From assembly GCA_963801745.1 (NCBI GenBank), contig CAWDFY010000005.1, positions 918,619 to 982,618 of the forward strand: a stretch of 64,000 nt of DNA, given 5' to 3'. Positions 27,382 to 56,195 of this stretch are shown here, one piece after another. Positions within the stretch are counted from its first letter, which is position 1. Each line of letters starts with the position of its first letter. Below the pieces are notes generated by a model, which saw only the letters and a list, made by a program, of their open reading frames with translations, was not told the DNA's origin and did not search any database. Source of the DNA: an uncultured Chloroflexia bacterium. Lineage in GTDB: Bacteria > Chloroflexota > Limnocylindria > Limnocylindrales > CSP1-4. Made by a program: the position numbers and the translations under genes.

Positions 27382-27554
27382 CGTGGCCGAAGTGGCCCGC
27401 GAGTTGGCGGAACTGGAGCTTGGGCGCGAAAACGATCGCCGGCCGTTATCGCCAGGGGGCGAGGCGGCCGCGTCGCGGCGCCTGGGGCCGAAATCGATCC
27501 CTCACAGCGATCGACGCGCGCCGCGGCCACACCTCGCGGGTACGGTACGGAACG

Positions 27555-30344
27555 ATGGACGCCCTCCAGCGCATCCTCGGCATCCGGCCCGGCGAGGGGC
27601 GGATCGTGGCTGGCGTCGCGGCGCTGTTCGCGCTCCTCGAGGCGGCGCGCGGGTTCGGCGAGGTCGGGGCCGACTCGCTGGTCCTGGCCACGTATGGTCC
27701 GGACGCGCTCCCGACCACCCTGCCGTACCTGTTCATCGCGCTCGGGCTCGTCAGCCTCGCGGTCTCCCTCGCCTACTCGGTCGCCCTCGGGCGCCTGCCC
27801 CGGATCCCGCTCTTCCTGGGCGTGCTGCTCGGGATCGCGGCGCTGCTGATCCTGCTGCGGATCGGCCTGGCATCGGGAATCGGGGCCCTCGTGCCGGTCG
27901 TGTGGCTCATCGTGTTCGCGTCGACCGCCATCAACCTGACGATCGCATGGACCGTGAGCGGCGCAACGTTCGATGCCCGGCAGGCCAAGCGCCTCTTCCC
28001 GATGCTGACCGCCGCGGCGATCGGCGGGAGCTTCGTCGGCACGCTCGCCGCCGGGCCGGTCGCTGGGCTGATCGGGGTCGAGTCGCTGGTCGTGGTCCAG
28101 GCGCTGCTGCTCGCGGCCGCGGCCGTCCTGCTGGGCCGCCTGCCCCGGCGACCACGACGGTCGACTGCGGTGGTCGAGCCCACCTCCGTCATCGACGACC
28201 TGCGTGCCGGCTTCGACACCGTCATCCGCTCGCCGCTCATGCGTCTCGTGGCGCTCGCGTACGTCCTGCTGGCGGTGCTGATGTTCTCGCTCAACTACCC
28301 GTTCATGATCGCCGCCGCGCGTCAGTTCCCGAACGACGTCGAGCTCGCGACGGCGCTCGGGCTCCTGTCGGCCGCGATCACCGCGACCTCGTTCGTGATC
28401 TCGCTGGCCCTCGCCAACCGCATCTACGCGCGGTTTGGGATCTCCGCCGGGGCGCTGGCACTGCCGCTCGTGTACGCGGTCGGCTTTGCCGGCTGGCTGG
28501 TCCAGTTCTCGTTCGCGTCCGCGGCCGCGTTCCGGTACGCCCAACAGGCCACGCAGCGGGGCGTCTCGAATGCAGCATGGAGCGCGTTCTACAACGTCGT
28601 CCCCGCGTCGCGTCGGGCCCAGGCGCTGGCGTTCAATGACGGGGTCCCCGGCCAGGTCGGCACCGTGCTGTCCGGGCTCCTGCTGCTGGTGGTGGCGAAC
28701 CTCAGTGGCCTGGAGCCGGTCTTCTGGCTGGGGCTGGCGACGGCCGTCGTCGCCACGGCCATCGTGCTCGCGATCCGGCGGCGCTACGCCGACAGCCTCC
28801 TCGCCGCGCTCCGATCCGGCCTGGCCGAGCAGGTCCTCGAGGGGGGGCCGGGACTGCCATACGCGATCGACCGACCGGAGGAGCGCGCGGCGGTCGTGGC
28901 GATGCTGGATGCGGCCGAGCCGGCCACGCGCCGCCTCGCCACGTCGATCCTCGGACGGGCCGCGAACCTCCGCCCCGAGGACCGCGCCCGGCTGGTCGGT
29001 CTGCTCGACGACCCCGATCCCGCGGTCCGAGCCGAAGCCGCGGTCGCCGCATTGACGGATCACCCGGACGACGAGCACTCGAACGCGACGCTCGCTGCCC
29101 TGCTCCTGAGCACCGACGACGAGGCGCGTATCGCCGGTCTGGATGCGGCCGCCCGGATCCCCGAGTGCGTTCCATCCGAGCTCCTAGCGCCACTCCTGTC
29201 CGCGGAGCGACCGGCCGTGCGGGCGGCCGCGATCACGGCGGCAGCGGCCCGCCGCGACGCAACGCATGTCGCCCCGACGCCGGCGCTCATCGCCGCGCTC
29301 GACGATCCCGCACGTGTCGTCAGGTCCGCCTCCGCCGACGCGCTGGCGATCCGGCCCGGTGCAGGACCCGGTCTCATCGAGGTCCTGCGCGACGGGGGGC
29401 CCGACGCGATCGACGCCGCCCTCGCCGCGGTGGGCGGACACGCGTCCGACGTCGAGGACGACCTGCTCGGCTGGGCGCGTGGGCGGATCGAGCGGGCCGA
29501 GGACCTCCATCGGGCGCACACGTCGGTCGTGATGCTGGCCGGTCGGACCGAGACGCTCGATTTCCTCGACGCGGTCCTCGATCAGCGTGCCCGCGCCGCC
29601 GAGGACCGCGCGATCGCCGCCGTCGTGGCGGTCGGGGCACCATCGGCCGGTGGCCTGATGCGACGCTCGCTGCGTTCGTCAGACCAGGACGCCCGGGCGC
29701 AGGCCATCGAAGCGCTCGACTCGTTGGGAGGACGCGACCTCGGCCGCGCATTGACCGCGTGCCTCGAGGCGGTCGCCGACCGGCACGGCAGCGATCCACT
29801 GGCGACGCTCGTGGACCTGACGCAAGATGACGATCCGTGGATCGCGTCGCTGAGTCGGAGCGTCCGCGAGGAGATGAGCGGAAACGCAGCGGATGAGAGG
29901 TCGATGTCGGGTCAGGACGGCGCCGCGAGCGAGCTCGAGACGATGCTGCTCTTGCGTCGCGTCCCGCTGTTCGCCGGCCTCGAGCCGGAGGACCTCCAGC
30001 GCGTCGCCGCCGTCGCCGTCGAACGCGAGTACCCGTCGGGCGTCGCGCTCATGCGCGAGGGTGACCTCGGCGACGAGCTGATCGTCCTCGTCGATGGCTC
30101 GGTGCGGGTCGTCCAGGCCGGACCGAACGGCGAGGAGCGGTTCATCCGGCGGTACGAGGCGGGCGAGCACATCGGCGAGCTCGCCGTGCTGCGCGACCGG
30201 CCTCGGATCGCCACGGTGATCGCCGAGGGCGAGGTCCGCGGCCTCGTGCTCGGTGGGGACGGTCTTCGGGCGATCCTGCGCGAGCGTCCCGAGGCGGCCA
30301 TGGCGATGCTCGCCACGCTCGCGGAGCGCATCTCCAGCCAGTAG
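27555..30344 (+). CDS. 12-TM transporter domain (MFS / ADP-ATP-translocase-like) fused to HEAT repeats and a C-terminal cyclic-nucleotide-binding (CNB) domain
   Basis: The ATG is at 27555. About 12 hydrophobic helices span residues 1-440. HEAT-like repeats follow (DPDPAVRAEAAVAAL, ERPAVRAAAITAAA, DDPARVVRSASADALA). The CNB domain reads LLRRVPLFAGLEPEDL...GDELIVLVDGSVRV...GEHIGELAVL...RIATVIAEGEVRGLVL. Confidence 0.8.
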   Translation: MDALQRILGIRPGEGRIVAGVAALFALLEAARGFGEVGADSLVLATYGPDALPTTLPYLFIALGLVSLAVSLAYSVALGRLPRIPLFLGVLLGIAALLILLRIGLASGIGALVPVVWLIVFASTAINLTIAWTVSGATFDARQAKRLFPMLTAAAIGGSFVGTLAAGPVAGLIGVESLVVVQALLLAAAAVLLGRLPRRPRRSTAVVEPTSVIDDLRAGFDTVIRSPLMRLVALAYVLLAVLMFSLNYPFMIAAARQFPNDVELATALGLLSAAITATSFVISLALANRIYARFGISAGALALPLVYAVGFAGWLVQFSFASAAAFRYAQQATQRGVSNAAWSAFYNVVPASRRAQALAFNDGVPGQVGTVLSGLLLLVVANLSGLEPVFWLGLATAVVATAIVLAIRRRYADSLLAALRSGLAEQVLEGGPGLPYAIDRPEERAAVVAMLDAAEPATRRLATSILGRAANLRPEDRARLVGLLDDPDPAVRAEAAVAALTDHPDDEHSNATLAALLLSTDDEARIAGLDAAARIPECVPSELLAPLLSAERPAVRAAAITAAAARRDATHVAPTPALIAALDDPARVVRSASADALAIRPGAGPGLIEVLRDGGPDAIDAALAAVGGHASDVEDDLLGWARGRIERAEDLHRAHTSVVMLAGRTETLDFLDAVLDQRARAAEDRAIAAVVAVGAPSAGGLMRRSLRSSDQDARAQAIEALDSLGGRDLGRALTACLEAVADRHGSDPLATLVDLTQDDDPWIASLSRSVREEMSGNAADERSMSGQDGAASELETMLLLRRVPLFAGLEPEDLQRVAAVAVEREYPSGVALMREGDLGDELIVLVDGSVRVVQAGPNGEERFIRRYEAGEHIGELAVLRDRPRIATVIAEGEVRGLVLGGDGLRAILRERPEAAMAMLATLAERISSQ

Positions 30345-30353: not shown

Positions 30354-32988
30354 GTGGTCGAGAGCGACATCACCGACCGGACGCTGCCGACCGGCACCGT
30401 CACGTTCCTCCGGACCGATGTCGAGGGCTCGATGGCCCTCAGCCGAGCCCTCGGGTCGCGCTGGGACGCGCTGAACGACCGGCACCTCGGGCTCATCCGC
30501 GGGGCGGTCGACGCGGCCGGCGGGGTGGTCGTCCGGACCGAGGGGGACGCCGTCTTCGCGGCCTTCCAGGAAGCCGGTGCCGGCGTCCGGGCGGCCATCG
30601 AGGCGCAACGGGCCCTCGTCGAGGCCGACTGGCCGGCGGACGCGCAGATCCGCGTCCGGATGGGTCTCCACAGCGGCGAGGCGCACCTGGCCGGCGACGA
30701 CTACGGCGGTTTCGACGTCAATCGGGCAGCGCGCGTCGCTGCCACCGGTCACGGCGGCCAGATCATCCTCAGCTCCACGACCCGCGGTCTGGTCGAGTCG
30801 TCACTGCCGGATGGCGTGGACCTCCGCGACCTCGGACGGCATGCGTTGCGCGACCTGCCGCAACCCGAGCAGCTGTTCCAGCTCGACGTGCCAGGCCTTC
30901 GAACGGCATTCCCGGCGCTGCGCACCGCCATGCCGACCATCGGTGATCTGCCATCGCGGATGACCAGCTTCGTCGGTCGCGAGGCCGAGCTCGATGAGCT
31001 ACGCGAGCTGCTGGGCGAGCAGCGGCTGGTGACGCTGACCGGTCCTGGCGGGATCGGCAAGACGAGCCTGGCCGTAGAGACGGCGCGCTCCGTGGCCCAC
31101 CGCTTTGCCGACGGGGCGTGGTTCGTGCCGCTCGCCCAGGTCGACGAGCCGTCGATCGTAGCCTCGGTCATCGCCCGCACGATCGGCCTGTTCGACGGAC
31201 CCGCGAGGCCCGCCAGAGATGCCCTCGGCCCCTACCTCGCCGAGCGGTCGGTCCTGCTCGTGCTCGACAACTTCGAGCGCCTGCTCGACGCGTCGAGCGA
31301 TGTCGCCGACATCCTCCGCGCGTCATCAGCTTCGAGGATCCTGTTGACCAGCCGGGCGCCACTGCGGATCCCAGGCGAGCAGGAGTATCCGGTCAGGCCG
31401 CTGGTCGAAGCCTGCCCGACGCTGTTCGTGGAGCGCGCACGAGCGGTCAAACCTGGCTGGGAGCCCGGGGCCGAAGCAGCAGTCCTCGATGACGTGTGCT
31501 CCCTGCTCGACGGGCTGCCGCTCGGGGTCGAGCTGGCAGCGGCCCGCGTCGCGCACCTACCGGTGACCGCCATCCGGGACCGCCTGGCTGCGCGCTTGCC
31601 GCTCCCGGGTGCGGGCCCGCGCGATGTGCCGGACCGGCAGCGCACGCTGGCGGCCGCCTTCGAGTGGAGCCACGACATGCTCTCGACCGGATCGCAGCAT
31701 GTCCTGCACGATCTGGCCGTATTCGAAGGTGGGTTCGACCTCGACCAGGCCACGCAGGTGGTTCAGCCGACCGATGACGGCGTCGACGTGCTCGATCACC
31801 TCGTGGCGCTCGTCGACCAGAGCCTCGTCAAGCGCGATGCGGAGGACTCGGTCGGATCCGGGATCCGCTTCCGGCTGCTCGCGACGATCCGTGGCTTCGC
31901 GCTCGAGCGACTTGACGGCGAGGGCCGATCGGAGGAGGCCCGGCGGCGGCACGCCGTCGCGTACCTCGCGCTGGCCGAACAGGCGGCGCCGACGATGCCG
32001 GGACCAAACCAGCCGCGGTGGCTAGCGCGCCTGACCATCGACTACGACAACATCCGCGCGGCGATCCGATGGACCATCGACGCCGGTGAGGTCGAGCTCG
32101 CGTTGCGGTTCGTGGCCGCGATGTGGCGCTATTGGCAGCAGGATGGCCATCTTGTCGAAGGCGCCGACCTGGCGGAGGCGGCGCTTGCGATGCCCGGTGC
32201 CGATGCCACGACGGAGCATCGGCTTGCTGCCGTCACGGCGGCGGGTGGGATCGCGTACTGGCAGAACCGGCGAGCGGACGCGCTCGGGTGGTACGAGGAG
32301 GAGCTCGCGGTCGCACGCCGGCTCGGACACGTGGCAGGCGAGGCGGACGCCCTCTGGAACCTGGCCTACGGACGATATGTCGCCGAGGATACGTCGGGTG
32401 CGGAGGAGCTCCTGCGACGGTCTCGTCGGCTGTTCGAGCAAGTCGGTGACGAGCGAGCGATCGCGCGTGTCGATTGGTCGATAGCGACGCTGCTTGGCGC
32501 GATCGCGATGAGTCGGGAACAACTGCCAGTGTTCGAGTCTCTGCTGGACAGAATTCGAGCGCCTCGGCGACCCGTGGTACGCCTCTCAAGCGAAGTCCAG
32601 CATCGCCTGGGTGCTGTTCATGACCGGCGACCTGCCCGGCGCCAGTCGCTGGTACATCCGCGGGCTGACGACGGCGCTTGGCCTTCGAGACCTTACCGGG
32701 GCGACCATCTCGCTCGAGGTCGCGGCTGTGGTGGCCGCGGAAGCCGGGCGGCCCGAGGAGGGTGCGGCGATGATGGGGGCGTCCGAGCACCTTCGCGAGC
32801 TGTACGGGGTGGAGCCACCACAGGGTTTGCAGGAGCTCATCGGACAGGCGTCGCCGCGCGAGCGTCTCGTGGCGCTGCTCCTCCCGGACCGCTTCGCGGC
32901 CTCGTTCGACCGCGGCCGGCAGATGACGATCGATGAGGCGGTCGCCCTGATCATCCGGGTCCAGGACGAGACCTGGGGTGGCGCTTGA
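30354..32988 (+). CDS. class III nucleotidyl (adenylyl/guanylyl) cyclase + NB-ARC/AAA ATPase + TPR (STAND) protein, copy 1; frameshift near 32552
   Basis: The cyclase domain reads TVTFLRTDVEGSMALS...RTEGDAVFAAF...RVRMGLHSGEAHLAGDDYGGFDVNRAARVAATGHGGQII. Walker A is LTGPGGIGKTSLA. The C-terminal 125 aa (ORF 32611..32988) is homologous to the end of copy 2 but lies in a different frame. The gene begins 10 nt after the CNB-transporter stop. Confidence 0.75.
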
Positions 32989-35633
32989 CACACGCAGGTA
33001 CCGACCGGACGCTGCCGACCGGCACCGTCACGTTCCTCCGGACCGATGTCGAGGGCTCCATGGCCCTCAGCCGAGCCCTCGGGTCGCGCTGGGACGCGCT
33101 GAACGACCGGCACCTCGGGCTCATCCGCTCGGCGGTCGACGCGGCCGGCGGGGTGGTCGTCCGGACCGAGGGGGACGCCGTCTTCGCGGCCTTCCAGGAA
33201 GCCGGTGCCGGCGTCCGGGCGGCCATCGAGGCGCAACGGGCCCTCGTCGAGGCCGACTGGCCGGCGGACGCGCAGATCCGCGTCCGGATGGGTCTCCACA
33301 GCGGCGAGGCGCACCTGGCCGGCGACGACTACGGCGGTTTCGACGTCAATCGGGCAGCGCGCGTCGCTGCCACCGGGCACGGCGGCCAGATCCTTCTGTC
33401 GGGCGCATCGCAGGCGCTCGTCGCCGACGCACTGCCCGACGGCGTCACGCTGCGCGACCTTGGCACGTACGTGCTGCGCGACGTGCCGCGCCCGGAGCGG
33501 CTGTTCCAGGCCGACGCCTCCGGCCTGCCGACAGCGTTCCCGCCGCCGCGCGCCGGTCGGGTCGAGATCGGCAACCTCGACGATCGACTCACGACGTTCG
33601 TCGGTCGGGACGAGCCCGTCCGAGAGCTGCGGGAGCTCCTCGGGACGTCACGGCTGGTGACGCTCACCGGGGCGGGCGGCATCGGCAAGTCGAGTCTCGC
33701 GTTGGAGACAGCTCGGGCAGCCCAGGAGGGGTTCGCCGACGGGGCGTGGTTCGTCCCGCTTGCGACCATCGATGGGACCGAGGAGGTGCTGCCTCTCGTC
33801 GCCCGGACGCTCGGGCTGTACGACGGTTCGGCGAGCTCGGCTGCCGACACGCTTCCGCGCTTCATGGCCGATCGCTCGCTCTTACTCCTCCTCGACAACT
33901 TCGAGCACGTCGTCGATGCGGCGCCGGTCGTGGCGAACCTCGTCCGGTGGTCGTCTCGATCGCGAGTCCTGGTCACGAGTCGGACGCCACTGCGTCTCGC
34001 CGCCGAGCAGGAATATCCGGTCGCCCCGCTCACGGTCGAGGCAGGTGCAGACGTGAGTCCGCCCGACGGCGACACTCCCGCTCGACGATTGTTCGTGGAT
34101 CGGGCTCGGGCCGTCCGTCCAGGCTGGGATCCCGGGACGGAGATCTCGGTCGTGGACGAGATCTGCCGGCTCGTCGACGGCCTGCCGCTCGGGATCGAGC
34201 TGGCCGCCGCCCGAGTGGCGCTGCTGCCGCTCGGCGCGATCCGTGATCGCCTGGCCGCGTCGCTACCGCTGCCCGGCGCCGGGTCCCGCGACGCTCCAGC
34301 GCGCCAGCGGACGCTTGAGGCCACCGTCGAGTGGAGCCACGGCCTGCTGAGCCCCGATCTCCAACGCGCACTGCACCGGTTCTCGGTATTCGAGGGCGGC
34401 GCGGATGTCGACCAGGCCCAGGACGTGTTGGTGGATCACGGCGCCGCCGACGACGTCCTCGACCGACTCGTCGAGCTCGCCGAACGAAGCCTGCTCGAGC
34501 GCGACCCCTCGCCGCTCGGCATCCGATTCCGGATGCTCCGAACGATCCAGACCTTCGCCGAGGTGAGACTCGAGCACGACGATGACGAAACGGCGGTCCG
34601 CCGCCGGCACGCCCAGACCTTCCTGGATCTCGCCCGGCAAGCGCAACGAGACGAGGGCACGGCTGCACAGGTCCCCTGGATCGAGCGCCTGTCGATCGAC
34701 GATGCCAACCTTCGCGCGGCGATCCGTTGGGCGATCGACCACGACGCGCGTCTTGCGCTCGCACTCGTGGCGGCCGCCTGGCGGTTCTGGCAGACCGACG
34801 GCCATCTCACCGAGGGCCGCACGCTCGCCGACCGGGCCCTCGCGTTGCCCGATGCCGCCGCCCCGACGGTCGAGCGGATGTGGGCGGTGGGTGCCGCGGG
34901 GAGCATCGCATACTGGCAAGCCGACTCAGAGACGGCACAACGTCGCTACGAAGAGCAGGTCGCCCTGGCCCGGGCGCTCGACGACGAGCGGGGCATCGCC
35001 GACGCCCTCTTCAACCTCGCCCATACGGAGTTCATCCATCTGGCCGATGCGGAAGCGGCGCACGTCCTGCTCGATGACGTCGTCTCGCGATACCGGGATC
35101 TGGGCGACGAGCGCGGGGTAGTCCGGGCGGAGTGGGCGGCCAGCAACGTGCTCCTCGACGAGCACCGGACCGAGGAGGCGACGGCCTTGATGCAGCGGCT
35201 GCTGCTCGAGTTCGAGCGACTCGGCGACACGCAGTATCACGCGATGGCGCTCGGGAGCCTGTCCTGGGCGGCATTCATGGCCGGGGACACGCAGGATTCG
35301 ATCGGCTACGCCGCGGGTGCGCTGCGCGAGTCGTACGACATGCGCGACCTCGGGACCACGACGATCTCGATGCATGTCGGCGTCCTGATCGCGCTGATCA
35401 CCGGGCGACCGGAGGTGGCTGCACGGCTGACCGGTGTCTTCGACGCCGCGAGCGAGCGCTATGGCGTCAGGCCGCCGGCCGCGCTGGACCGGTTCCTCGC
35501 CGACCAAGATCCGTTCAGCGCGGCCCGGGAAGCGCTCACGCCCGAGCGATGGGAGATCGAATACGCGGCGGGCCGCCGGATGAGCCTGGGTGAGGCCGTG
35601 GACGTCGTGGAGTCCATGGCCCCGACCCGCTGA
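32985..35633 (+). CDS. class III nucleotidyl cyclase + NB-ARC/AAA ATPase + TPR (STAND) protein, copy 2 (intact)
   Basis: The N-terminal 150 aa are near-identical to copy 1 at the protein and DNA level. Walker A is LTGAGGIGKSSLA. The C-terminus is a TPR-like helical region. The TTG start overlaps the copy-1 stop (TTGA). Confidence 0.85.
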   Translation: MTHAGTDRTLPTGTVTFLRTDVEGSMALSRALGSRWDALNDRHLGLIRSAVDAAGGVVVRTEGDAVFAAFQEAGAGVRAAIEAQRALVEADWPADAQIRVRMGLHSGEAHLAGDDYGGFDVNRAARVAATGHGGQILLSGASQALVADALPDGVTLRDLGTYVLRDVPRPERLFQADASGLPTAFPPPRAGRVEIGNLDDRLTTFVGRDEPVRELRELLGTSRLVTLTGAGGIGKSSLALETARAAQEGFADGAWFVPLATIDGTEEVLPLVARTLGLYDGSASSAADTLPRFMADRSLLLLLDNFEHVVDAAPVVANLVRWSSRSRVLVTSRTPLRLAAEQEYPVAPLTVEAGADVSPPDGDTPARRLFVDRARAVRPGWDPGTEISVVDEICRLVDGLPLGIELAAARVALLPLGAIRDRLAASLPLPGAGSRDAPARQRTLEATVEWSHGLLSPDLQRALHRFSVFEGGADVDQAQDVLVDHGAADDVLDRLVELAERSLLERDPSPLGIRFRMLRTIQTFAEVRLEHDDDETAVRRRHAQTFLDLARQAQRDEGTAAQVPWIERLSIDDANLRAAIRWAIDHDARLALALVAAAWRFWQTDGHLTEGRTLADRALALPDAAAPTVERMWAVGAAGSIAYWQADSETAQRRYEEQVALARALDDERGIADALFNLAHTEFIHLADAEAAHVLLDDVVSRYRDLGDERGVVRAEWAASNVLLDEHRTEEATALMQRLLLEFERLGDTQYHAMALGSLSWAAFMAGDTQDSIGYAAGALRESYDMRDLGTTTISMHVGVLIALITGRPEVAARLTGVFDAASERYGVRPPAALDRFLADQDPFSAAREALTPERWEIEYAAGRRMSLGEAVDVVESMAPTR

Positions 35634-37396: not shown

Positions 37397-37554
37397 ATAT
37401 TCGTCGCCGCGACTCGACCTACCCCTCCGTCTCCGGCGTCGGCCAAAACCTGCCATATGTTCATCAGGCGCACACAGGACAGAGTTCCGTGCGCGGCCGC
37501 GGGAGGGAGACGCATCTCGGACGAACGGTGCACAGATGGCAGGAAGCCGGGCCG

Positions 37555-38340: not shown

Positions 38341-38467
38341 CCAGAAGCCTCCCTTCCCCGGCGGATACAGCTCCGCCGATCCCTCTTATGCCCGGCCATC
38401 CTGGGTAGATCGATCCCGGATCGCGCGGCCCGGTGGATCGTAGCGGCGCCACCGCTCCTGGCGTGTC

Positions 38468-38878
38468 TTAGGTGCGCGCCGCCTTGTGACCGCCCTCGGC
38501 TCGGCGCGCGGCGCCCCAGCCCGGATCGCCCGCGGTCGCTGCGTAGCCACGGTTGGTGAGGTCCTCGAGCTCCGACAGCAGCACCTCGTCGACCTTCGCG
38601 AAGTTGAAGCACGACTTGCCCTGCATGCGCTTGCGGAGCGCTGGCGACACGTCGTCGAGCAGGTCCGGCTTCGCGTACACCGGCATCAGGTAGTAGCTGA
38701 CGTAGCGCTTGCCGACCCGCGTCGCGCCGAACCACGTCGACGGGTCGCGCTCGGCCTCGGGCGCCATGTCGACGCCGAACCACTGCGGCGAGTCGGCGGA
38801 GACGTACATCTCCCTGGCGTACGGCGCGAGCATCCCCTTGAACCGCTCGAACAGCTGGCCGAACTCGGCCTCCGACAT
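38468..38878 (-). CDS. DUF1801 (YdhG-like) domain protein
   Basis: 136 aa with protein-like composition. It lies 14 nt downstream of the E1beta stop. Confidence 0.55.
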   Translation of the reverse strand: MSEAEFGQLFERFKGMLAPYAREMYVSADSPQWFGVDMAPEAERDPSTWFGATRVGKRYVSYYLMPVYAKPDLLDDVSPALRKRMQGKSCFNFAKVDEVLLSELEDLTNRGYAATAGDPGWGAARRAEGGHKAART

Positions 38879-45873: not shown

Positions 45874-47555
45874 TCAGCCGGCCGGTGGCGGCACCCCGTA
45901 CTCGCGGCGGGCGCTGGCAAGGTACGCGTCGCGCTCGCGTTCGCACTCGTCGTCGTCCCAGCCGAGCTCGCGGGCCATGATCGCCGCCACCCTCGGCGCG
46001 ACGGCCTGACCGCGGTCGGCGAGCTCGGGACTCAACCGGAAGCGGCGCGACAGGACGTCGTCGACGGACATGGCCAGCTCGTGACGCACCGCCCACGCCA
46101 CCTCGGCCTCGAGGAACGGCCGCTCCGGCACGAGCGGCCGGATGAGGTCCAGCTCCTCCCCGAGCGGCCACGACGGCGGACGCCTGGGATCCGTGCCGCG
46201 CGACCAGGCGCGCCTGCGGCGTCAGGGTGCGCCGCGGCCACGGCCGGGTGCGCCGCGATCTCCGTCACGAGCCGCGGCAGTGCATCGGCATCGGCCGCCC
46301 CGACCAGCCGGTGCTCGGCCGTTCCGCTGGGCCGCCGCCGCGCTTCCTCGGGCCCGAGGGCGGCATCGATCACGTCTGCGCGCCATGACCCGGTACGTCG
46401 TGTACTTGCCACCACCGATGCGGACGACACCGTTCGACTCGACCGTTACCCGATGCTCGCGCGACGCCTTGACGGTCGAGCCTCCCGACGGCGCGATGAG
46501 CGGCCGCAGCCCGGCGTAGGTGCCGACCACGTCGGTCCGTTCGAGGTCGACGTCGAGCGTGCCGTTGACGGTCGCCAGCAGCTCGTCGACCTCCCAGCCG
46601 TCGGCCACGGGTCGCTCGAACGGCCCCGTGTACGGTGCGTCGGTCGTGCCGATGACCCAGTGATCCGGCCAGGGCACGAGGAACACGACCTTGCCCGGGA
46701 CGCGGATCGTCAGGCCGGCCGACATCGGGATCCGCTCGCGCGGAACTACGACGTGTGCGCCCCTGCTCGGCTGGATGCGCAGCGACTCGCTCGAGAACGG
46801 GTGATCGGCCTCGGCCGCCCACGCACCCGTCGCGTCGACCACGAGGCGTGTTCGGACCTCGTGCTCGTCGCCGGTCACTCGGTCGACCACGAACAGCGTC
46901 CGCAGCCCGCCCGGCGCCGCGTCGCCGAGGCCGGTCGCTCGGGCTCGCGTCAGGACGACTGGCGCGGCATCCGTCGCGAGCGCGGTCCTGGCCACCGCGA
47001 GGGCGAGGCGAGCGTCGTCCTCGACACCGTCGTGGTAAAGGAGCGCCGCCGCGCAGCCGGTCCCGGCGGAGCGCGGGCGCGACCTCGAGGGTGGCAGCGA
47101 CGCCGAGGCGCCGATGCCAGCCGCCGTCGTGACGGGCGCCCAGCAGGTCGTACAGCGTGAGGCCGGTGTCGTAGAACGCCTTGTGGACGACCGGCAGGCC
47201 GTAGATCGGGAAGAGCTGCGGCTCGAGCGTCACGAGGTGCGGGGCGTTGCGCAGGAGCCGGCCACGCTCCGCGCAGCCCCTCGCGGACCAGCGGGAAGTG
47301 GAGCTGCTCGAGGTAGCGCAGCCCGCCGTGGATGAGTCGCGACGATCGCGACGACGTCCCCGACGCGATGTCGTCCTGTTCGACGAGCGCGGCGCGCAGC
47401 CCGCGCGTCGCGGCGTCGAGCAGAGCGCCCGACCCGACGATGCCGCCACCGACGATCACCACGTCCCAGGTCTCGTCGACCAGGCGAGCGAGGTCGGCCG
47501 ACCGGCGCTGGAGTGGGGCCGATAGGTCCGCGGGCTTCGCTCCCGGCCCCGTCAC
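45874..47555 (-). pseudogene. glpD: FAD-dependent glycerol-3-phosphate dehydrogenase, at least 4 frameshifts
   Basis: Consecutive GlpD segments lie in four different minus-strand frames. These are the FAD site (DVVIVGGGIVGSGALLDAATRGLRAALVE...SGTSSRSSRLIHGGLRYLEQ), then RNAPHLVTLEPQLFPIYG..., then ...GAHVVVPRERIPMSAGL...GKYTTYRVMA, then the C-terminus PFLEAEVAWAVRHELAMSVDDVLSRRFRLS. Confidence 0.7.
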
Positions 47556-47782
47556 CGCTCGCCGTCGACCGGCCGGCCGCGCGAGATGCGCCACAACAGC
47601 CAGGCCGTGCCGACGATCAGGACCACGATCAGGACCGGCCCCTGGAAGATCGCCTGCTGGATCGGCGTCGGCAGGAAGCCGGTGAGCGCCGCCGCGCCGA
47701 GCACGACCACCACGACGCCGATGGCCAGCAGGACGACCTGTGGCCAGCCGGGTTCGCGACCGGGCGCCTCGGGCTCAGCCAC
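47552..47782 (-). CDS. small 2-TM membrane protein (hypothetical)
   Basis: The GTG at 47782 lies 2 nt after the YjeF_N stop. Two hydrophobic helices are QVVLLAIGVVVVVLGAAALTGFL and VLIVVLIVGTAWLLW. Confidence 0.35.
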   Translation of the reverse strand: MAEPEAPGREPGWPQVVLLAIGVVVVVLGAAALTGFLPTPIQQAIFQGPVLIVVLIVGTAWLLWRISRGRPVDGER

Positions 47783-48581
47783 GGTCCGCGTCGGCAGGGA
47801 TGCCGATCGGGGCGACCAGCACCTTGCCCGCATGCGCCGAGCCGCGTCGCGTCGCCAGGCCGGTCTTCGGGCGGTGGAACGTGACCGTCAGGTCGGCGAG
47901 CACGGCCGGATCGGAGGGTTCGCCGCTGGACAGGTCGACGGCCGTCGGCGTGTCGACGGCCACCACCGGGATGCCGGCACGGTGCGCGCGATCGATGACC
48001 TCGACCGCGCTGCGGATCGGCTCGCGAAGCGGTCCGCGAACGCCCGTTCCGAGCAGCGCGTCGACGATCACGGCGGCCTTCTCGATGCCTTGCCCGAAGA
48101 CCGCCACGTCGCGGGCGACCGCCGCGTGGACCTTGGCGATCCCCGTGTCGCGCGCGATGCGATCCCAGTTCCGGGACGACGTCGCTCCGGTCGGACGCGC
48201 CTCGGCGGCGATCACGGCGACGACGACGCGGCCACCGTTGAGGGCGAGCCGGCGGGCGGCGACATAGCCGTCGCCGCCGTTGTTGCCGGGTCCGCACAGG
48301 ATCACGATCGGTCCCTTGTCCCATCGGTCCGTGTCGACGGCGAGCGCCCGGACCGCCGCGGCGACCGCGGTCCCGGCGTGTTCCATCAGCCGTTCCTCGC
48401 TGACGCCGAGCGCCTGGGCGCGCCGGTCGGCACCGCGCATCGCCTCTGCGCCGATCGGAGGCAGGTCCGCGCGGTCGGCCCACCGATGTCGGAGCCCGCG
48501 CAGGTCGAGCTCGAAGATCAGGGGGTCGTCGGCGGGCAGGGGCGAGGTGGCGGACCCGCTGGCCGCCGGGCTGGACGACAT
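47775..48581 (-). CDS. NAD(P)H-hydrate epimerase (YjeF N-terminal domain)
   Basis: The sequence reads ...GPIVILCGPGNNGGDGYVAARRLALNGGRVVVAV...DALLGTGVRGPLREP. The ATG lies at 48581. Confidence 0.75.
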   Translation of the reverse strand: MSSSPAASGSATSPLPADDPLIFELDLRGLRHRWADRADLPPIGAEAMRGADRRAQALGVSEERLMEHAGTAVAAAVRALAVDTDRWDKGPIVILCGPGNNGGDGYVAARRLALNGGRVVVAVIAAEARPTGATSSRNWDRIARDTGIAKVHAAVARDVAVFGQGIEKAAVIVDALLGTGVRGPLREPIRSAVEVIDRAHRAGIPVVAVDTPTAVDLSSGEPSDPAVLADLTVTFHRPKTGLATRRGSAHAGKVLVAPIGIPADADRG

Positions 48582-48615
48582 GGTCCGCCAAGGGTATCCG
48601 ACCGTGGTCGACGGG

Positions 48616-49551
48616 TCAGGCCGTGGCCAGCCGTGCCCGCAGACCACCGGTCGACGTCATCTCCTCGAGCTCCAGCAGGCCGTCGCCGGCCATCGCCAGC
48701 GCTGCCGTCCGGACCCGCCCGAGATCGTGTGCGCCGATCGGCTCGTCGAGGGCGACCCAGCTGTCGCCCGGAGCTGCCCGCAGCCGGTCGAGGATGCGGC
48801 CGCGAAGCCAGCGGGTCGTGGCCGGGAACGCCTGCGGCGGTCGACGACGTGACAGCCGAGCTGCGTCCCCCGGCTCCCGTCCGCCACTCGCCGCGAAGCG
48901 ACACCAGGCGCGCATCGGGCAGTCGTCGCAACGCGGCCCGCGCGGGCGGCAGATCGTGGCGCCGAGATCCATGACCGCGTGGGTCCAGGCGGCGGGTCGG
49001 TCGGTCGGGACGGCTCTGTCGGCAAGGGCCTGCAGCGCTCGCGTCGACAGCACTCCCGGGTCGCCGGCGACGATGCGGCCGAGGACCCGACGGACGTTGA
49101 CGTCGACCGCTCCGACCGGCCGGTCGAACGCGATGGCCGCGACCGCCCGGGCGGTGTACGGACCAACGCCGGGCAGGGCCTCGAGCGCCTCGACCGAGTC
49201 GGGGACTCGACCGCCATGCTCGTCGCGGATCATGATCGCGGCCCGTCGAAGGGCGAGCGCGCGACGGTCGTAGCCGAGCCCGCGCCACGCCCGGAGGACC
49301 TCCGCCGGGGAGGCAGACGCGAGCGACTCGACCGTCGGGAAGCGCGCCATGAAGCGCTCCCAGCTGGCGGCGGCGCGCGCGGCCTGGGTCTGCTGGGCCA
49401 TCGCCTCCGACACGAGGACCGCGTAGGGATCGGCGGTCCGGCGGAACGCGAGGGGACGCCCACGCTCCGCGTACCAGTCGAGAAGGGCGTCTCTCGCCGC
49501 GGGCTCGATGCCGGCCGGGTGCTCCACGCGGCGAGGATAGCCTCGGTGCAT
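48616..49551 (-). CDS. mutY: A/G-specific adenine DNA glycosylase (HhH-GPD, 4Fe-4S)
   Basis: The HhH region is LPGVGPYTARAVAAIAFD. The Fe-S cluster loop is CRPRGPRCDDCPMRAWC. The ATG lies at 49551. Confidence 0.8.
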   Translation of the reverse strand: MHRGYPRRVEHPAGIEPAARDALLDWYAERGRPLAFRRTADPYAVLVSEAMAQQTQAARAAASWERFMARFPTVESLASASPAEVLRAWRGLGYDRRALALRRAAIMIRDEHGGRVPDSVEALEALPGVGPYTARAVAAIAFDRPVGAVDVNVRRVLGRIVAGDPGVLSTRALQALADRAVPTDRPAAWTHAVMDLGATICRPRGPRCDDCPMRAWCRFAASGGREPGDAARLSRRRPPQAFPATTRWLRGRILDRLRAAPGDSWVALDEPIGAHDLGRVRTAALAMAGDGLLELEEMTSTGGLRARLATA

Positions 49552-49630
49552 CGACAAGTGAGCGACGGTTGACCGGGCGATGACCGACGACGCGTACGAT
49601 GCTCGTGCATCCGCCCGGGAGGTTCGTTCC

Positions 49631-50343
49631 ATGGCCGTCGCCACGCTGCCCTTCACCGGCTTCCGCCCCGAGGCGATCGACTTCCTCGCGGACCTCGCCC
49701 AGAACAACGACCGCTCCTGGTTCCAGCCGCGCAAGGCCGACTACGAGCGGCTCCTCAAGGAGCCGATGGAGGCATTCGTCGAGGCCCTGGCCGAGCGGCA
49801 TTCGAACGCCGAGACCTGCCGCTCCAGGCCGATCCGAAGCGGTCGATCTTCCGGATCTACCGCGACACACGCTTCGCCAAGGACAAGTCGCCCTACAAGA
49901 CCCACCTGGGCGCGAGCTTCCCGTGGGTGGAGGGCATGGACCCGGACACGGCGATGTCCCACGGCGAGCACCGCAACGGCGCGTACTTCCACCTCCAGCC
50001 GGGCAACAACTACGCCGGTGGCGGGATGTGGCGCGCCTCGAAGGCCGTCCTCGACGCCTTCCGCCAGGCCATCCTCGACGACGAGGCGCGGGTCCGCGCG
50101 GCGCTCGAGGACCCCCGGTTCATCGCCGAGTTCGGGCCGGTCGAGAGCCACGACACCCTCAAGCGCGTGCCGCCGGGCTACCCGCCCGACCACCCGATGG
50201 CCGAGCTGTTCCGCTACAAGGACGTGGTCTTCGGGCGACGGCTGTCCGACGACGAGGTCTACTCCGCCGAGCTGCCCGACATCCTGGCGACGGCGTACGC
50301 CTCGGCGACGCCGGTGTTCCGGTTCCTGTCCTCGCTCGACTGA
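49631..50343 (+). CDS. DUF2461 / TIGR02453 family protein, 1 frameshift near 49815
   Basis: The N-terminus reads MAVATLPFTGFRPEAIDFLADLAQNNDRSWFQPRKADYERLLKEPMEAFVEALAE. The next frame reads DPKRSIFRIYRDTRFAKDKSPYKTHLGASF...RVPPGYPPDHPMAELFRYKDVVF. Confidence 0.7.
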
Positions 50344-50352
50344 CGACGGAGG

Positions 50353-51295
50353 ATGCGGTTCGGCGCTGCGTTCTGGATCCAGCGCACCAGCTGGCCCGAC
50401 CTGCGCGATGCGTGCCTCGCCGTCGAGGCGGCGGGCTGGGACTCGATCTGGCTCGACGACCACCTGCTGTCGGACGAGGGGGACTGGAGCGACCCGAAGC
50501 TGGAGGGCTGGGCGTCGCTCGCCGCGGTCGCATCGCTGACGACGCGCGTCCGCCTCGGGCTGCTGGTGTCGTCGACGACGTTCCGGAACCCGGGGCTCAT
50601 CGCCAAGCTGGCGACGACGCTGGACCACGTGTCGGGCGGGCGGAGCGTGCTCGGGCTCGGCGGCGGCTGGTTCGGCCGCGAGCACGACGCCTTCGGCATC
50701 GATTTCGGGACAGGCTTCGGGGAACGGCTCGACCGGCTCGACGAGGCGACGATGATCGTCCGGCGGCTGCTCGACGGCGAGCGGTTCTCACACGCCGGCC
50801 GCTTCTTCCGGGTCGACGACGCGGTGTGCGAACCGCGCCCCGTGCAGGAGCGGCTGCCGATCCTGATCGGCGGCTCCGGGCCGACCAAGACGCTGCGCAC
50901 GACGGCCCGGTACGCCGACCTGTGGAACGGCTATGGCGACCCGGACCGCATCGCCGACGTGTCCGAGGTCCTGCGCACCCGCTGCGGGGAGGATCGGCCG
51001 TCCGTTCGAGTCGATCGAGCGGACCGTGACGGTCCACGCCGTCGTGCGCGACACCGCGGCGCACGCGGTCGAGGCGTGGACGCCGATCGCCAAGCGGCAC
51101 GGCCTGGTCGACCGCGTGGCCGCCGACGGCACCGATCGGGGCCTCACCGTCGGTGGTTCGCCGCAAGAAGTAGCCGCGTACCTCGACGGCTATCGCCGCA
51201 TCGGGGTCGGCGAGGTGGTGTTCGTGTTCCGCCACCCCTTCGACCTGGAGACCGTCGGGCGGCTCGACGAGGTCCGGGCCGCGCTCGGCGGCTAG
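50353..51295 (+). CDS. LLM-class F420-dependent oxidoreductase (second copy), 1 frameshift near 50990
   Basis: The N-terminus reads MRFGAAFWIQRTSWPDLRDACLAVEAAGWDSIWLDDHLL. The C-terminus GRPFESIERTVTVHAVV...GVGEVVFVFRHPFDLETVGRL is in the +1 frame after the cggggag run. Confidence 0.7.
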
Positions 51296-52270
51296 GTCCC
51301 TGACCGCTCCTCGGCGGTCGTGCGTCGCCACAGCTCGGCCGCGAGCAGCTCGGCCACCACCGAGGCGACGATCGCCCGCTCGAAGCGATCGGCCGCCGGA
51401 CGCGGCGGGACCGGGATCGTCAGCGCGGCGCCATCGACCGCGTCTCCGACGACGATCGTCTCCCCTCCCCGGCGGGCGATCGTGCGGACGACCTCCGCGT
51501 CGGCCGGCGCGCCGCCGAAGAGCAGCGCCCGGTGGCCGGGCAGCGCGAGGTAGACCGCGGTGTGCAGCCAGTCGCCGGTGTCGTGTCGCGGTGCGCCGGC
51601 AGACGCGGCGCCTCGCGCAGCATGAGCGCCGCCTGCTGGACCAGCGCCGAGTCGGCCGCGTCGCCGACGACGTCGATCGCCGTGGCGCCGTCGAGGAGAT
51701 CGGCCGCGTCGGACAGCCACGCATCGCGGCCGTCGATCGCGGCCCCCAGTGCCTCGACCGCCGGGCGGAACGAGCCGGCGCTCGGACCGTCCGCCGACCC
51801 AGCGACCGGCGAGCATCGCCGAGCACCGCGACCGTGGCCCGGAACGTGCGCGTGGCGATGCCGGACGCCTCTTGCCGCGCGAACAGCGGCAACACGTGAT
51901 CGGCGGCCTCGGCCAGCGGCGACTCGATCCTGTCGGTCACCGCCACGACCCGGCCGTGGCCGCGATGGCGTCGGGCCGCCTCGACGACCTCCGGCGTGTG
52001 GTCCCGGACGCCGACACCGCGACCACGACGAGGTCCCCGGACGGTGCGGTCGGCGCGCCGCTCGACGCGTACTCGGACCAGGCCGCGACACCGCGGCTCC
52101 GGAGCTCCGCGGCGGCGGTCAGCGCCGCGTACCGCGAGCTGCCGAGCCCGACGAACGCGACCCGGCCGGGCGCCGCGCCGATGCCCGCGAGGGGTCCGCG
52201 CGGGTCCCCGTACGCGTCGAGCAGCTCGGCCAGGGCGGACGGCCCGGCGAGGATGTCGTCGAGCAGCGCG
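51292..52270 (-). pseudogene. SIS-domain sugar-phosphate isomerase/deaminase-like protein, at least 2 frameshifts
   Basis: The N-terminal SIS segment is RVAFVGLGSSRYAALTAAAELRSRGVAAWSEYAS...DLVVVAVSASGTT. The C-terminal segment DWLHTAVYLALPGHRALLF...AIVASVVAELLAAELWRR lies in another frame. Confidence 0.5.
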
Positions 52271-52286
52271 TCGGCGCGATCGGCGC

Positions 52287-53500
52287 TCACGCCCCTGCCC
52301 CGGCGTCCTCGAACAGCGCCCGCATCCCCTCGGTCGGCGCGTACAGCCACGCGGGCAGGTAGGTCGTGGCGTAGGCGAACTCGTACAGCTCCTTGTCGAC
52401 CTCGAAGGCGTGGAGGAGGTCCGGGTCGACGTCGACCCAGACCCGCCGCTCCGCCAGCTCGGCGCGGTACGCCTCGAGGAACCGTTCGCGGGCCCGCCGG
52501 ATCCAGGCCTCGGGGTCGAGCCCGGTGTGGTCCAGCGGGCCGCCGTGACGCGTCTCGGCACGTCGACGCGCGCTCCGCGCGACGTGATCGAGCGACCGCA
52601 GCATGGACGCCACGTCGCGGAGCGGCCGGCCGGTGCGCTCGGCGCTCCTCGGGCGTGGCGAGCGGCTCGCCCTCGAAGTCGATGATCCGGAAGCCGTCAG
52701 GTGCGATGAGCACCTGGCCCAGGTGGTAGTCGCCATGGGCACGGATCACCTCCGGCGCGGAGGCCAGCGCGTCGATCACGGTGATCGCCTCGGCGATGCG
52801 CGGCGCGAGGTCGCGGACGAGTCGCCCGGCGTCGCCGGACGTGGCCTCCAGCGCGGCGGCGAGATGCTCGTGCGCGGCCGTCGCCCAGCCCCGGATCTCG
52901 TCTCGGGTCGCGTTCCGCGGCGCCATGTCGGGCAGCCCGTGGCCGTCCGCGACCGCCGCGTGGAGCCCGGCCGTCAGCGTGCCCAGGTCGGCCGCGATCT
53001 CGGTCGCGAACTCGAGGCTCACCTCGCCGGGCGCCAGCGATCCACTCCGCGAGGGCCTCGGCCAGCGACTCGAACGCGTCGGCGCCGTCGGCCACGAACT
53101 CCTGGAGCATCGCGACCGTGGTCGAGCCATCGCGCTGGGTGATCACCTCGGCGAAGCCGGCGAGGCGGGGGATCGCCGGGAAGCCGGCGTCCTCGCTCAG
53201 GAACGCCGTCATCTCGAGGTCCGGGTTGAGGCCGGGCTGGAGCCGGCGGAACGCCTTGAGCAGGAGCGCGTCCCGCCAGCACCACCGAGGTGTGCGACTG
53301 GTCCGCCCCGAGGTCGCGCTCCGGGCCCGGCGCGTCAGGAGCCAGGTCGCGGAGAGCACGGGCCGGGCGGGCCACCAGGGCGGCCGTCGGACCCGTACCC
53401 GGGGTCGTCGACCCGCGCCAGCGCGGCGATGGTCCGGCCCTCGGCCATCGCCACGGCCAGCGTCCGCCACGTCCCGTCGCCGGGCGCCGCGACCCGCAGC
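52287..53500 (-). pseudogene. maltokinase-like (aminoglycoside-phosphotransferase-fold) kinase, at least 3 frameshifts
   Basis: Fragments lie in different frames. These are ALLLKAFRRLQPGLNPDLEMTAFL..., then HGDYHLGQVLIAPDGFRIIDFEGEP..., then the C-terminus ERRVWVDVDPDLLHAFEVDKELYEFAYATTYLPAWL. The 5-prime boundary is uncertain. Confidence 0.45.
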
Positions 53501-53729
53501 GGGTCGGCCGGTCAGCGCGAGGCTGTATCGCTCGCGGACGCCGTCGTCGAGCCGGACGACGATCGTCGCGAGGACGTGCGGACCGGCCTCGTCGAGGACG
53601 AACGCCTCCTCGAGCGACGCCTCGCCGATGGTCCGGCCCTTGGCGCCGAACCAGCGCGCCCCGGCGACCGCGTCGAGGTCGAGCGCCGAGATCGCCGCGG
53701 CGACCTCGGCTCGGGTGGGACCGCCGACG

Positions 53730-55183
53730 TCAGCCGCCCGTGTTGATCATCACGTGCTTGACGAACGTGTAGTCCTCGAGCGCGTACTTCGAGCCGTCCT
53801 TGCCGTAGCCGGACTGCTTCACGCCGCCGTGCGGTGTCTCCGACGCCAGCGTGAAGTGCTCGTTGATCCAGACGTGGCCGAACTCGAGCGCCTTGGCGAC
53901 GCGCATCGCCTTGCCGATGTCGCTCGTGAAGATCGACGACGCGAGGCCGTAGGGCGTGTCGTTCGCCCACTGCGATCGCCGTGTCCTCGTCGCTGAAGCG
54001 CTGGACCGTGACGACCGGCCCGAAGATCTCGTCCTGGATGATCTCGGACTTCTGGTCGGGGCCGGCGATGATCGTCGGCTCGTAGTAGGCGCCAGGCCGG
54101 TCGGGCCGCTTGCCGCCGACGACGACCTCGGCGCCGCCGCGCGCGCGGTCGACCATGCCCTCGACCTTGTCGGCCTGGGCCTTGGCGATGAGCGAGCCCA
54201 TCTCGATGTCGTCGCCCTCGGCCGGGTCGCCCCACTTGATCGTGCGGACCTGGTCGGCGAGCGCCGAGACGAAGTTGTCGTAGACCTTCGGCCCGGCGAT
54301 GACGCGGGTCGCGGCCGTGCAGTCCTGGCCGGAGTTCCAGTAGCCGGCCGAGCGCAGGGTCTCGGCGGCGAGGTCGATGTCGGCGTCGTCGAAGACGATG
54401 ATCGGCGCCTTGCCGCCGAGCTCGAGGTGCAGCCGCTTGACGGTGTCGGCGGCGATCTTGGCGATGCGCTTGCCGGTCGCCGTGTCGCCGGTGATCGAGA
54501 CCATCCGGACCTTCGGATGGCCGACCAGCGCGTCGCCGATGTCGGCGCCCGAGCCGGACAGGACGTTGACCACGCCCGGCGGCAGGATGTCGGCGAGGAT
54601 CTGGGCGAACGCCAGTGCGGTCAGCGGGGTGCGGGCCGAGGGCTTCAGCACGACGGTGTTGCCGGTCGCGAGCGCCGGGCCCGAGCTTCCACGTCGCCAT
54701 GTAGAGCGGGTAGTTCCACGGCGCGATCGACGCGACGACGCCGATCGGGTCGCGCCGGATGATCGACGTGTGGCCGGCCAGGAACTCGTTGGCGGCGAGG
54801 CCGTCCATCACCCGCGCGGCGCCGGCGAAGAAGCGGAACAGGTCGGCGCAGGTGGCCATCTCGTCGATCGCCGCACCGACCGGCTTGCCGGCGTTGGCGC
54901 TCTCGAGCCGGCCGAGCTCGTCGGCCTTGGCATCGAGCGCGTCGGCGATCTTGAGCATCAGCAGCGAGCGGTCCTGCGGGGTCGTCTGCTTCCACGTCTC
55001 GAAGGCCGTGTCGGCGGCCTCGACGGCCCGATCGACGTCCTCCTGCGAGCTCGCCGGCACGTTGGCGATGACCTCGTCGTTGGCCGGGTTGACGACCTCG
55101 GCGGTCTTGCCGTCGGCGGCATCGACGAAGTCGCCGCCGATGAGCTGCTGGTAGGTCTTGGCTCGTTCGAGGGTCTCGGTCAC
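53730..55183 (-). CDS. aldehyde dehydrogenase (NAD(P)+), 2 frameshifts (about 54645 and about 53935)
   Basis: GTG start. The N-terminus up to [17 protein letters not shown] is in frame 1. The middle [14 protein letters not shown]...ELGGKAP...GQDCTAATR... is in frame 2. The C-terminus [15 protein letters not shown]...[24 protein letters not shown]...INTGG* returns to another frame. Confidence 0.8.
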
Positions 55184-56191: not shown

Positions 56192-56195
56192 GTGG

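Follow-up and report, generated by a model that had tools for sequence, protein, structure and literature searches.

The combination of a cyclase, an ATPase, and TPRs in one protein is a domain architecture that has been catalogued for two decades. Class III cyclases must dimerise to be active, their active sites lying at the dimer interface, and STAND proteins oligomerise once the sensor has been engaged and the nucleotide exchanged. The Mycobacterium tuberculosis proteins Rv0386, Rv1358, and Rv2488c consist of a class IIIc adenylyl cyclase, a MalT-like ATPase, TPRs, and a LuxR-type helix-turn-helix (HTH), and this mycobacterial group has been described as having both adenylyl and guanylyl cyclase activity, which depends on a Gln-Asn pair (bioRxiv 10.1101/2024.03.06.583649). 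Here we evaluate a 64,000-nt stretch of DNA (the window; G+C content 72%) of an uncultured Chloroflexia bacterium (contig CAWDFY010000005.1 of assembly GCA_963801745.1, positions 918,619 to 982,618). It contains a three-gene operon consisting of a gene for a membrane protein with a cyclic nucleotide monophosphate (cNMP)-binding domain, followed by two tandem cyclase-STAND paralogues, copy 1 and copy 2, both of which are predicted class III cyclases. An initial annotation of this region, made from the sequence alone, described two tandem paralogous cyclase-NB-ARC-TPR genes of about 880 aa, and it was found that these encode 877 aa (copy 1, after correction of a frameshift) and 882 aa (copy 2), both on the + strand. 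As a whole, the locus is probably best explained by an operon, gene conversion between the paralogues, an artefactual frameshift in copy 1, and a mechanism in which a sensor would gate the cyclase.

The order of cyclase, STAND/P-loop ATPase, and TPR-like domains is the same as in Rv0386, Rv1358, and Rv2488c, and the substrate pair is non-canonical in both groups. The window proteins differ from the Rv0386 type, which we take to be the Gln-Asn-pair enzyme of the mycobacterial group, in that there is no C-terminal LuxR-type HTH (no Pfam GerE/LuxR HTH match was found in either copy), the pair is Arg/Asp, and the host is a member of the Chloroflexota and not an actinobacterium. As there is no C-terminal HTH, the output would be the cyclase alone and not transcription. 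The best sequence and fold match is Ma1120 of Mycobacterium avium (PDB 4WP3, 4WP9, and 5D15), with which the window proteins share the metal-binding Asp residues and the equivalents of Asp157 and Arg168. However, Lys101 of Ma1120 is an invariant Arg here, its Ala164 is the canonical Asn here, and the solved Ma1120 chains of 171 to 210 residues lack an NB-ARC or TPR module. In PH0952 of Pyrococcus horikoshii (PDB 6MFV) and the MalT- and AfsR-type regulators, as in the window proteins, an autoinhibited NB-ARC is expected to be freed by the sensor, but the effector here is a nucleotidyl cyclase instead of a DNA-binding domain, and the sequence identity is about 14%.

The family to which the two proteins belong is very large. 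Among 8,000 candidates scored, more than 7,900 proteins had E values of 1e-10 or lower and more than 7,600 had E values of 1e-50 or lower. The architecture was found in Chloroflexota, Acidimicrobiia, Gaiellales, and Thermoleophilia, and many homologues are already named "predicted ATPase/class 3 adenylate cyclase" in JGI data. The STAND-cyclase identity is right yet not new, and the two proteins are ordinary members of this catalogued family. One feature of both proteins is unusual: an invariant Arg stands at the position of the adenine-specifying Lys. As it stands, the locus matters little, in that the architecture is known, the members number in the thousands, and the apparently broken copy is probably a problem of assembly quality.

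Copy 1 (30354..32988, + strand, as are all features of the operon described below) was delimited by translations, codon-position GC, Pfam matches, and homologues. Its reading frame is frame 0 over 30354-32546 and then +1 over 32548-32988, which gives 877 aa once one base is taken out. The GTG start at 30354 lies 9 nt downstream of the stop codon of the upstream gene, and the TGA stop of copy 1 shares bases with the TTG start of copy 2 (TTGA), a 4-nt overlap. Copy 2 (32985..35633; translation and Pfam) is an intact gene of 882 aa for which TTG 32985 is the only in-frame upstream start. It has no indels relative to the orthologues in the related assemblies L001 (ENA ERZ25039591) and L002 (the metagenome-assembled genome (MAG) "uncultured Chloroflexia bacterium MFD02360.bin.2.141"), which are about 92 to 94% identical in DNA sequence to the window and 98.7% identical to each other.

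The public gene calls differ from these genes. The call for copy 2 (P0228, 857 aa) begins at Met27, and therefore the first β strand, including the metal-binding Asp21, is left out (window 32985-33065), whereas the call for copy 1 (P0121, 860 aa) carries a 129-aa out-of-frame tail. Users of the annotation should be warned that the public copy 1 protein has a nonsense tail, that the copy 2 start drops a catalytic Asp, and that many genes of the contig are frame-broken.

The class III cyclase catalytic domain of copy 2 (residues 10-178; 33012..33518) was assigned by a phmmer match to Ma1120, by Foldseek, and by a family alignment of 42 homologues (A2). In Pfam, copy 1 (24.1 bits) and copy 2 (23.4 bits) exceed the Guanylate_cyc (PF00211) cut-off of 21.9 by a small margin. 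The best phmmer match in the PDB was Ma1120 (E 1.7e-21, 34 to 37% identity), for which the roles of residues K101, D157, A164, and R168 have been described (PMC4215837). When copy 2 was compared with Ma1120, D21 and D64 corresponded to the metal-binding residues, R60 and D115 to the substrate pair, and N122 and R126 to the transition-state residues. The metal-binding Asp residues had been placed by the initial annotation in FLRTDVEGS and RTEGDAVF, and both align to the Ma1120 metal positions. In alignment A2, Asp21, Arg60, Asp64, Asp115, and Arg126 were invariant, and position 122 was N or S. All catalytic residues are present in the predicted cyclase domains.

The specificity residues, for which the initial annotation had contrasted K/D with E/C, fit neither the canonical Lys/Asp pair nor a Glu/Cys-type pair. 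The Asp is retained (Asp115 at the Asp157 position of Ma1120), but Arg60 replaces the adenine-specifying Lys (the Lys101 position), and with this Arg invariant the substrate specificity cannot be read from the sequence. Because the Asp of the pair is retained, the substrate is probably ATP and the product cyclic AMP (cAMP), although the Arg leaves this uncertain. The AlphaFold2 model of copy 2 had a mean predicted local distance difference test (pLDDT) score of 88, with values above 90 over most of the cyclase domain, and in Foldseek the cyclase fold gave target-normalised TM-scores of 0.91 (at about 2 Å) for Ma1120 and 0.84 to 0.89 for Rv1900c.

The NB-ARC module of copy 2 (residues ~200-531; 33582..34577) was assigned by Pfam, the invariant columns of A2, and Foldseek. 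It contains the Walker A motif GAGGIGKS, the Walker B motif LLLLDNFE, a TSR sensor motif, the GxP motif DGLPLG, and a winged-helix region. Both copies match GxGGIGK[ST] at Walker A and LL(V/L)LDNFE at Walker B, as had been proposed for the shared NB-ARC regions, and the residues invariant in A2 are G229, G231, G232, G234, K235, D304, N305, T331, S332, R333, L400, P401, L402, and G403. The Pfam NB-ARC score was 25.6 bits for copy 1 and 27.3 bits for copy 2 (cut-off 23.5). AAA_16 reached its cut-off in copy 1 alone, nSTAND1 and TPR_12 were below the cut-off in both copies, and HTH_77 (PF25872) was found among the precomputed matches of homologues. In NCBIfam, the NB-ARC region gave partial matches to the AfsR, FxSxx_TPR, and HaaT models.

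The C-terminal region of copy 2 (residues ~535-878; 34587..35618), the presumed sensor, is an all-helical TPR-like repeat region in the AlphaFold2 model and by Foldseek. The modelled C terminus consists of 18 consecutive helices, mostly with pLDDT above 90, and the repeats run through residue 877. The TPR_12 scores were 19 to 20 bits, below the cut-off of 30.1, and a PDB sequence search with the NB-ARC/TPR part gave weak LGN/Pins TPR matches alone. When the whole protein was used in Foldseek, the top match was the PH0952 STAND-TPR structure 6MFV (E 7e-11), followed by Ma1120, Rv1900c, Apaf-1, and CED-4. Therefore, the description of a STAND NTPase scaffold with an N-terminal class III cyclase output and a helical-repeat sensor agrees with the domain matches and the predicted structure.

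The corrected proteins are 56% identical in amino acid sequence overall, and the identity varies greatly by segment. It is about 100% over residues 7-137, 54 to 64% in the NB-ARC core, 30 to 48% in the helical repeats, and 22 to 36% over the last 180 residues. The near-identity of the N-terminal cyclase domains and the divergence of the TPR-like region had both been noticed in the initial annotation. Its further statement that the C termini become similar again is incorrect, as the last 180 residues are the least similar part. The pairwise alignment, which it had suggested, indicates homology across the NB-ARC region. As judged from these comparisons, the paralogues are old and divergent.

Against this background, 393 nt of the cyclase head stand out. 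The copy-1 side (30372..30764; cyclase residues 7-137) and the copy-2 side (33000..33392) have 4 mismatches and are 99% identical, and at both edges of the tract the identity falls abruptly to about 60%. The copy-1 side takes in both metal-binding Asp residues, Arg60, Asp115, Asn122, and Arg126. The corresponding tract is 98 to 99% identical in L001, whereas in L002 it is longer, with 100% identity over the first 450 nt and 92% in the next 90-nt window. An alignment of the two window copies with the two L001 copies (A1, four sequences) contained at least 10 sites at which the two copies of one genome match, yet neither matches either copy of the other genome. Such concerted evolution indicates that gene conversion continued after the lineages had split. 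The shared 393-nt cyclase head is therefore a gene-conversion tract, held nearly identical by conversion that is ongoing, and it is a clean example in which conversion between tandem sensor paralogues affects the catalytic head alone.

Other arrangements of the family were also found. The locus L082 has a single hybrid cyclase-STAND gene (L082:7000-9662) with the 5′ end of copy 1, the body of copy 2, and indels of its own; such a gene would be expected if unequal crossing-over had taken place in the shared 393-nt tract, or if the assembly had collapsed. Arrays of two or three cyclase-NB-ARC-TPR genes are present in other phyla (L046:2964-10412; L020:2791-13575; L016), and so local amplification recurs in the family. 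In these three arrays no tract of conversion grade was found, the cyclase region being only 75 to 92% identical.

The frame disruption that the initial annotation had reported near 32552 was confirmed. The reading-frame listing has copy 1 as an unbroken open reading frame (ORF) of 860 aa (30354-32936), which is unbroken because the out-of-frame tail by chance contains no stop codon. The last ~130 residues of this ORF are Arg/Pro/Gly-rich nonsense. From about 32548, the +1 frame reads EFERLGDPWY...WGGA* to 32988 and is colinear with the C terminus of copy 2. The phase of codon-position GC flips at about 32548-32552: the values were 0.77/0.50/0.85 before the shift and 0.72/0.52/0.85 after it in the new frame, whereas the frame of the listed ORF gave 0.85/0.72/0.52, a non-coding composition. 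Full-length homologues also align in the +1 frame, and the corrected 877-aa protein has many homologues of 870 to 890 aa with 61 to 71% identity and 99 to 100% coverage.

Three-way alignments with L001 and L002 place the lesion at 32551..32552, where one extra A is present. The window has AGAATTC, and the orthologous copy 1 of both L001 and L002 has AGATTC; this A is the only length difference between the window and orthologous sequences of copy 1, and the insertion is private to the window. The earlier impression of a change greater than a homopolymer slip arose because copy 1 had been compared with its divergent paralogue, and the remaining differences from copy 2 are of the kind normally seen between diverged paralogues. 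The GAATTC at this site had also been regarded as unexpected. It is the only one in the window, where shuffled sequences led to an expectation of 4.17 ± 1.9, and it is produced by the inserted A. We dropped GAATTC as a meaningful signal, there being no enrichment.

The first gene of the operon (27555..30344, likely ATG start at 27555, 929 aa; the open frame extends from 27420 to 30344, or 974 aa if whole) encodes a protein whose N-terminal region is MFS-like and multi-pass and which also has HEAT repeats and, at its C terminus, a cyclic-nucleotide-binding domain. The Pfam scores were 66 bits for cNMP_binding and 45 bits for HEAT_2, with a weak match to MFS_1. The Glu and Arg of the phosphate-binding cassette GELAVLRDRPRIATV are kept, and the PDB matches were to the cNMP-binding domains of PKA-R, PKG, and CRP. 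Orthologues of 925 to 1038 aa lie directly 5′ of the cyclase-STAND gene in L001, L082, L083, L084, L085, and a JGI contig, and the interval between the cNMP gene and the first cyclase-STAND gene is either a recurring 9-nt gap or an overlap.

The gene order around this pair is conserved. In at least seven relatives (L001, L002, L082, L083, L084, L085, and JGI 3300056388), the cNMP/HEAT gene and the cyclase-STAND gene are inside a cluster with lipA, an epimerase gene, and E2 on one side and E1 and E3 on the other, and the module is conserved in the same position down to 63% identity. The flanking genes are those for lipoyl synthase, an epimerase, E2, a PD40 protein, an extracytoplasmic function (ECF) sigma factor, a K+ channel, E1, and E3; the PD40, ECF sigma, and K+ channel genes lie between cyclase-STAND and E1/E3 in most loci, though not in L084. 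Single genes of the copy-1 type are found in L083 (intact, 881 aa) and L085 (878 aa), and a single gene of the copy-2 type in L084 (898 aa). The locus is a vertically conserved core-genome position in a 2-oxoacid dehydrogenase cluster and not a defence island.

The cluster at window positions 23000-45700 and the recurrence of the 9-nt gap in L083, L084, and L085 hint at a role in metabolic signalling. In the distant Thermoleophilia/Gaiellaceae, a gene with a cNMP-binding domain is near a cyclase-STAND gene in L026 (L026:7604-7777), where it lies directly upstream of the cyclase-STAND gene but on the other strand, and in L030 (L030:13581-13823). In the MAG locus L003 (L003:5642-9458; 56% identity over residues 393-875), the HEAT region of the upstream gene runs almost straight into the second half of NB-ARC, an apparent deletion having removed the first half of this module along with the cyclase and the cNMP-binding domain.

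The fusion of a cyclase to a STAND module leads to a prediction of sensor-gated cyclase dimerisation. Each cyclase-STAND protein would be kept inactive as a monomer. Engagement of the TPR-like sensor by a ligand or partner would allow nucleotide exchange at NB-ARC and then oligomerisation, which would unite the cyclase domains in the obligate class III dimer for synthesis of a cNMP (most likely cAMP, with the specificity made uncertain by the Arg/Asp pair). The co-transcribed MFS-like/HEAT membrane protein, with its cyclic-nucleotide-binding domain, would be the obvious receiver of this cNMP. Two different sensors would in this way feed one identical output domain, and mixed dimers would be possible. 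The conversion of a sensed ligand into a cNMP pulse, suggested in the initial annotation, is the most reasonable mechanism, and it is strengthened by the gene for a cNMP-binding protein 9 nt upstream in a conserved operon.

A wider proposal is that the cNMP-binding MFS-like/HEAT protein and the cyclase-STAND gene or genes form a self-contained, uncharacterised second-messenger circuit in the 2-oxoacid dehydrogenase/lipoate cluster, with a STAND-gated Arg/Asp cyclase whose perhaps non-cAMP product controls the transporter-like protein; in two-copy genomes, the common head kept by conversion would permit mixed dimers, two inputs, and one output. We regard this proposal in its full form as speculative and rather unlikely. 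The conserved operon pairing of a STAND-gated Arg/Asp cyclase with a cNMP-binding membrane protein nevertheless offers a concrete route to the ligands of STAND cyclases and the targets of their products.

Several points weigh against the explanation given above for the locus as a whole. The cyclase activity, the substrate, the oligomerisation, and the link to the cNMP-binding neighbour are predictions from homology and gene order, and a promoter and terminator scan found nothing exceeding the shuffled background that would bound the operon. A cNMP-binding neighbour, when looked for across the family (80 loci), was confined to this lineage plus L026 and L030. Copy 1 is frame-broken also in L002 (one insertion, at the equivalent of 31338) and in L001 (about 12 indels), and these independent breaks could reflect relaxed constraint on copy 1 in this clade. 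Finally, the extra A was judged to be a probable error from assembled sequences alone.

With these points taken into account, the frameshift in copy 1 is most probably an assembly artefact, a consensus error of a long-read metagenome assembly. L001, L002, and other relatives are long-read metagenome assemblies; the proteins of the window lie on a contig of 1.93 Mb, and we infer that the window itself is a long-read consensus. At least two other one-base lesions private to the window lie within 4.3 kb of the copy 1 lesion, and both genes concerned are intact in L001 and L002. In the ECF sigma gene, a deletion at ~36866 puts residues 1-152 and 154-183 into different frames, and the PD40/Tricorn-like gene is broken by an insertion at 36683, which separates the frame of residues 1-30 from that of residues 31-336. 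The rate of gene-breaking private indels in the aligned region is about one per 6 kb, at which a 2.6-kb gene is expected to be hit about 1 time in 3, and therefore such an indel in copy 1 is unremarkable.

Farther along the window, a codon-phase scan detected about 20 same-strand frame switches without stop codons between 46 and 61 kb (46000-61500, mostly on the - strand). Three cases were verified. An aldehyde dehydrogenase gene occupies three frames (55230-53712), the Walker A (59985-59754) and signature/Walker B (59694-59283) motifs of an ABC ATPase do not share a frame, and an alpha/beta hydrolase gene (61431-60630) is likewise affected. The consensus sequence thus appears to be of low quality over this part of the contig. 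A maltokinase-like gene (53682-52692) also has stretches that are out of frame.

The best-surviving alternative is that copy 1 is a genuine, recently inactivated pseudogene, a redundant tandem copy no longer under constraint in this clade, with independent frameshifts in each lineage and a 5′ end refreshed by gene conversion, in line with the paralogue decay proposed in the initial annotation. Copy 1 is indeed disrupted in all three tandem-copy assemblies, at a different site in each, while copy 2 is intact in all three, and L082 is without a copy-1 body. The differing positions of the indels in the window, L002, and L001 mean that these lesions were not inherited. The ratio of nonsynonymous to synonymous substitution rates (dN/dS) between the window and L002 was 0.24 for copy 1, 0.20 to 0.22 for copy 2, and 0.14 for the upstream gene. 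Within copy 1, it was 0.24 outside the conversion tract and 0.27 past the frameshift, with no rise downstream of either frameshift, and the post-shift segment differs from L002 at 9 of 438 nt. Copy 1 evolves under purifying selection. It contains no stop codons, deletions, or further lesions, and relatives have intact genes of the copy-1 type, both in a JGI tandem pair (894 and 881 aa) and as the single genes of L083 and L085. Lesions of the same one-base type, moreover, occur in clearly needed genes of the window, and a chance hit in a gene of this length has the expectation given above.

The four-ORF copy 1 of L001 was considered as evidence of decay and rejected: L002, which is 96% identical to L001 across copy 1, has none of its ~12 indels, and the stretches concerned resemble a mosaic consensus of copy 1 and copy 2 in a raw metagenome assembly. 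L082, which is from the same project as L001, has compensating indels too. We therefore consider it unlikely that copy 1 is a pseudogene. An assembly error, which the initial annotation had itself named as the alternative to decay, appears to be the likelier case. With the break most probably a consensus error, we infer that both genes are to be treated as functional.

A different alternative concerns the role of the locus. The initial annotation had compared the proteins with the Avs-type anti-phage proteins, and an anti-phage system can be imagined in which Avs-like TPR sensing of a phage protein would activate the cyclase, and the cNMP would activate the neighbouring membrane protein as an effector of abortive infection, as in Pycsar. 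The plan of an N-terminal effector, STAND ATPase, and C-terminal TPR-like sensor is indeed like that of Avs, and the position of a class III-type cyclase beside a protein with transmembrane segments and a cNMP-binding domain is Pycsar-like. The cNMP-binding domain of the neighbour matched PADLOC PycTIR (E 1.7e-9) and the PycTIR structure 8jsj in the PDB (E 4.4e-7), and the non-canonical Arg/Asp substrate pair, the fast divergence of the sensors, and the tandem arrays would also suit such a role.

However, no Avs or Pycsar PycC match was found by PADLOC in either copy; copy 2 matched 0 families, and copy 1 had sub-threshold generic P-loop matches alone (E 6e-4 to 7e-3). There was also no Avs structure among the top 50 Foldseek matches. 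The likeness to PycTIR is that of a generic cNMP-binding domain only, with better matches to PKA, PKG, and CRP. In contrast to Avs, there is no hidden Markov model match and no toxic effector domain here, and in contrast to Pycsar, the cyclase is fused to a STAND sensor and the partner is a large MFS-like/HEAT protein (~930 aa) with no TIR and not a short transmembrane effector. The locus also holds the same core-metabolic, housekeeping position in at least seven genomes, inherited vertically with conserved synteny and not as a mobile defence island. Taken together, these results make an anti-phage function very improbable.

Loss of the C-terminal sensor often lifts autoinhibition in STAND proteins such as MalT, Apaf-1, and PH0952, the last being the 6MFV fold match. 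It is nonetheless scarcely credible that copy 1 truly carries the frameshift and functions in truncated form, as a deregulated or decoy subunit that would keep the cyclase, NB-ARC, and two thirds of the sensor plus the 129-aa out-of-frame tail and hetero-oligomerise with copy 2 through the identical cyclase head, since, although the 860-aa ORF has no interruption and conversion keeps the heads identical, the post-shift region is conserved in its original frame (98% identical to L002), the composition of the tail is non-coding, and the frameshift was found in no relative.

Two further differences between the window and both L001 and L002 were found downstream of the cyclase-STAND genes. A segment of 132 nt in the window (37411-37542) is missing from both assemblies, and at 38449-38482, in the intergenic region near the K+ channel gene, about 330 nt that are present in both assemblies are absent from the window.

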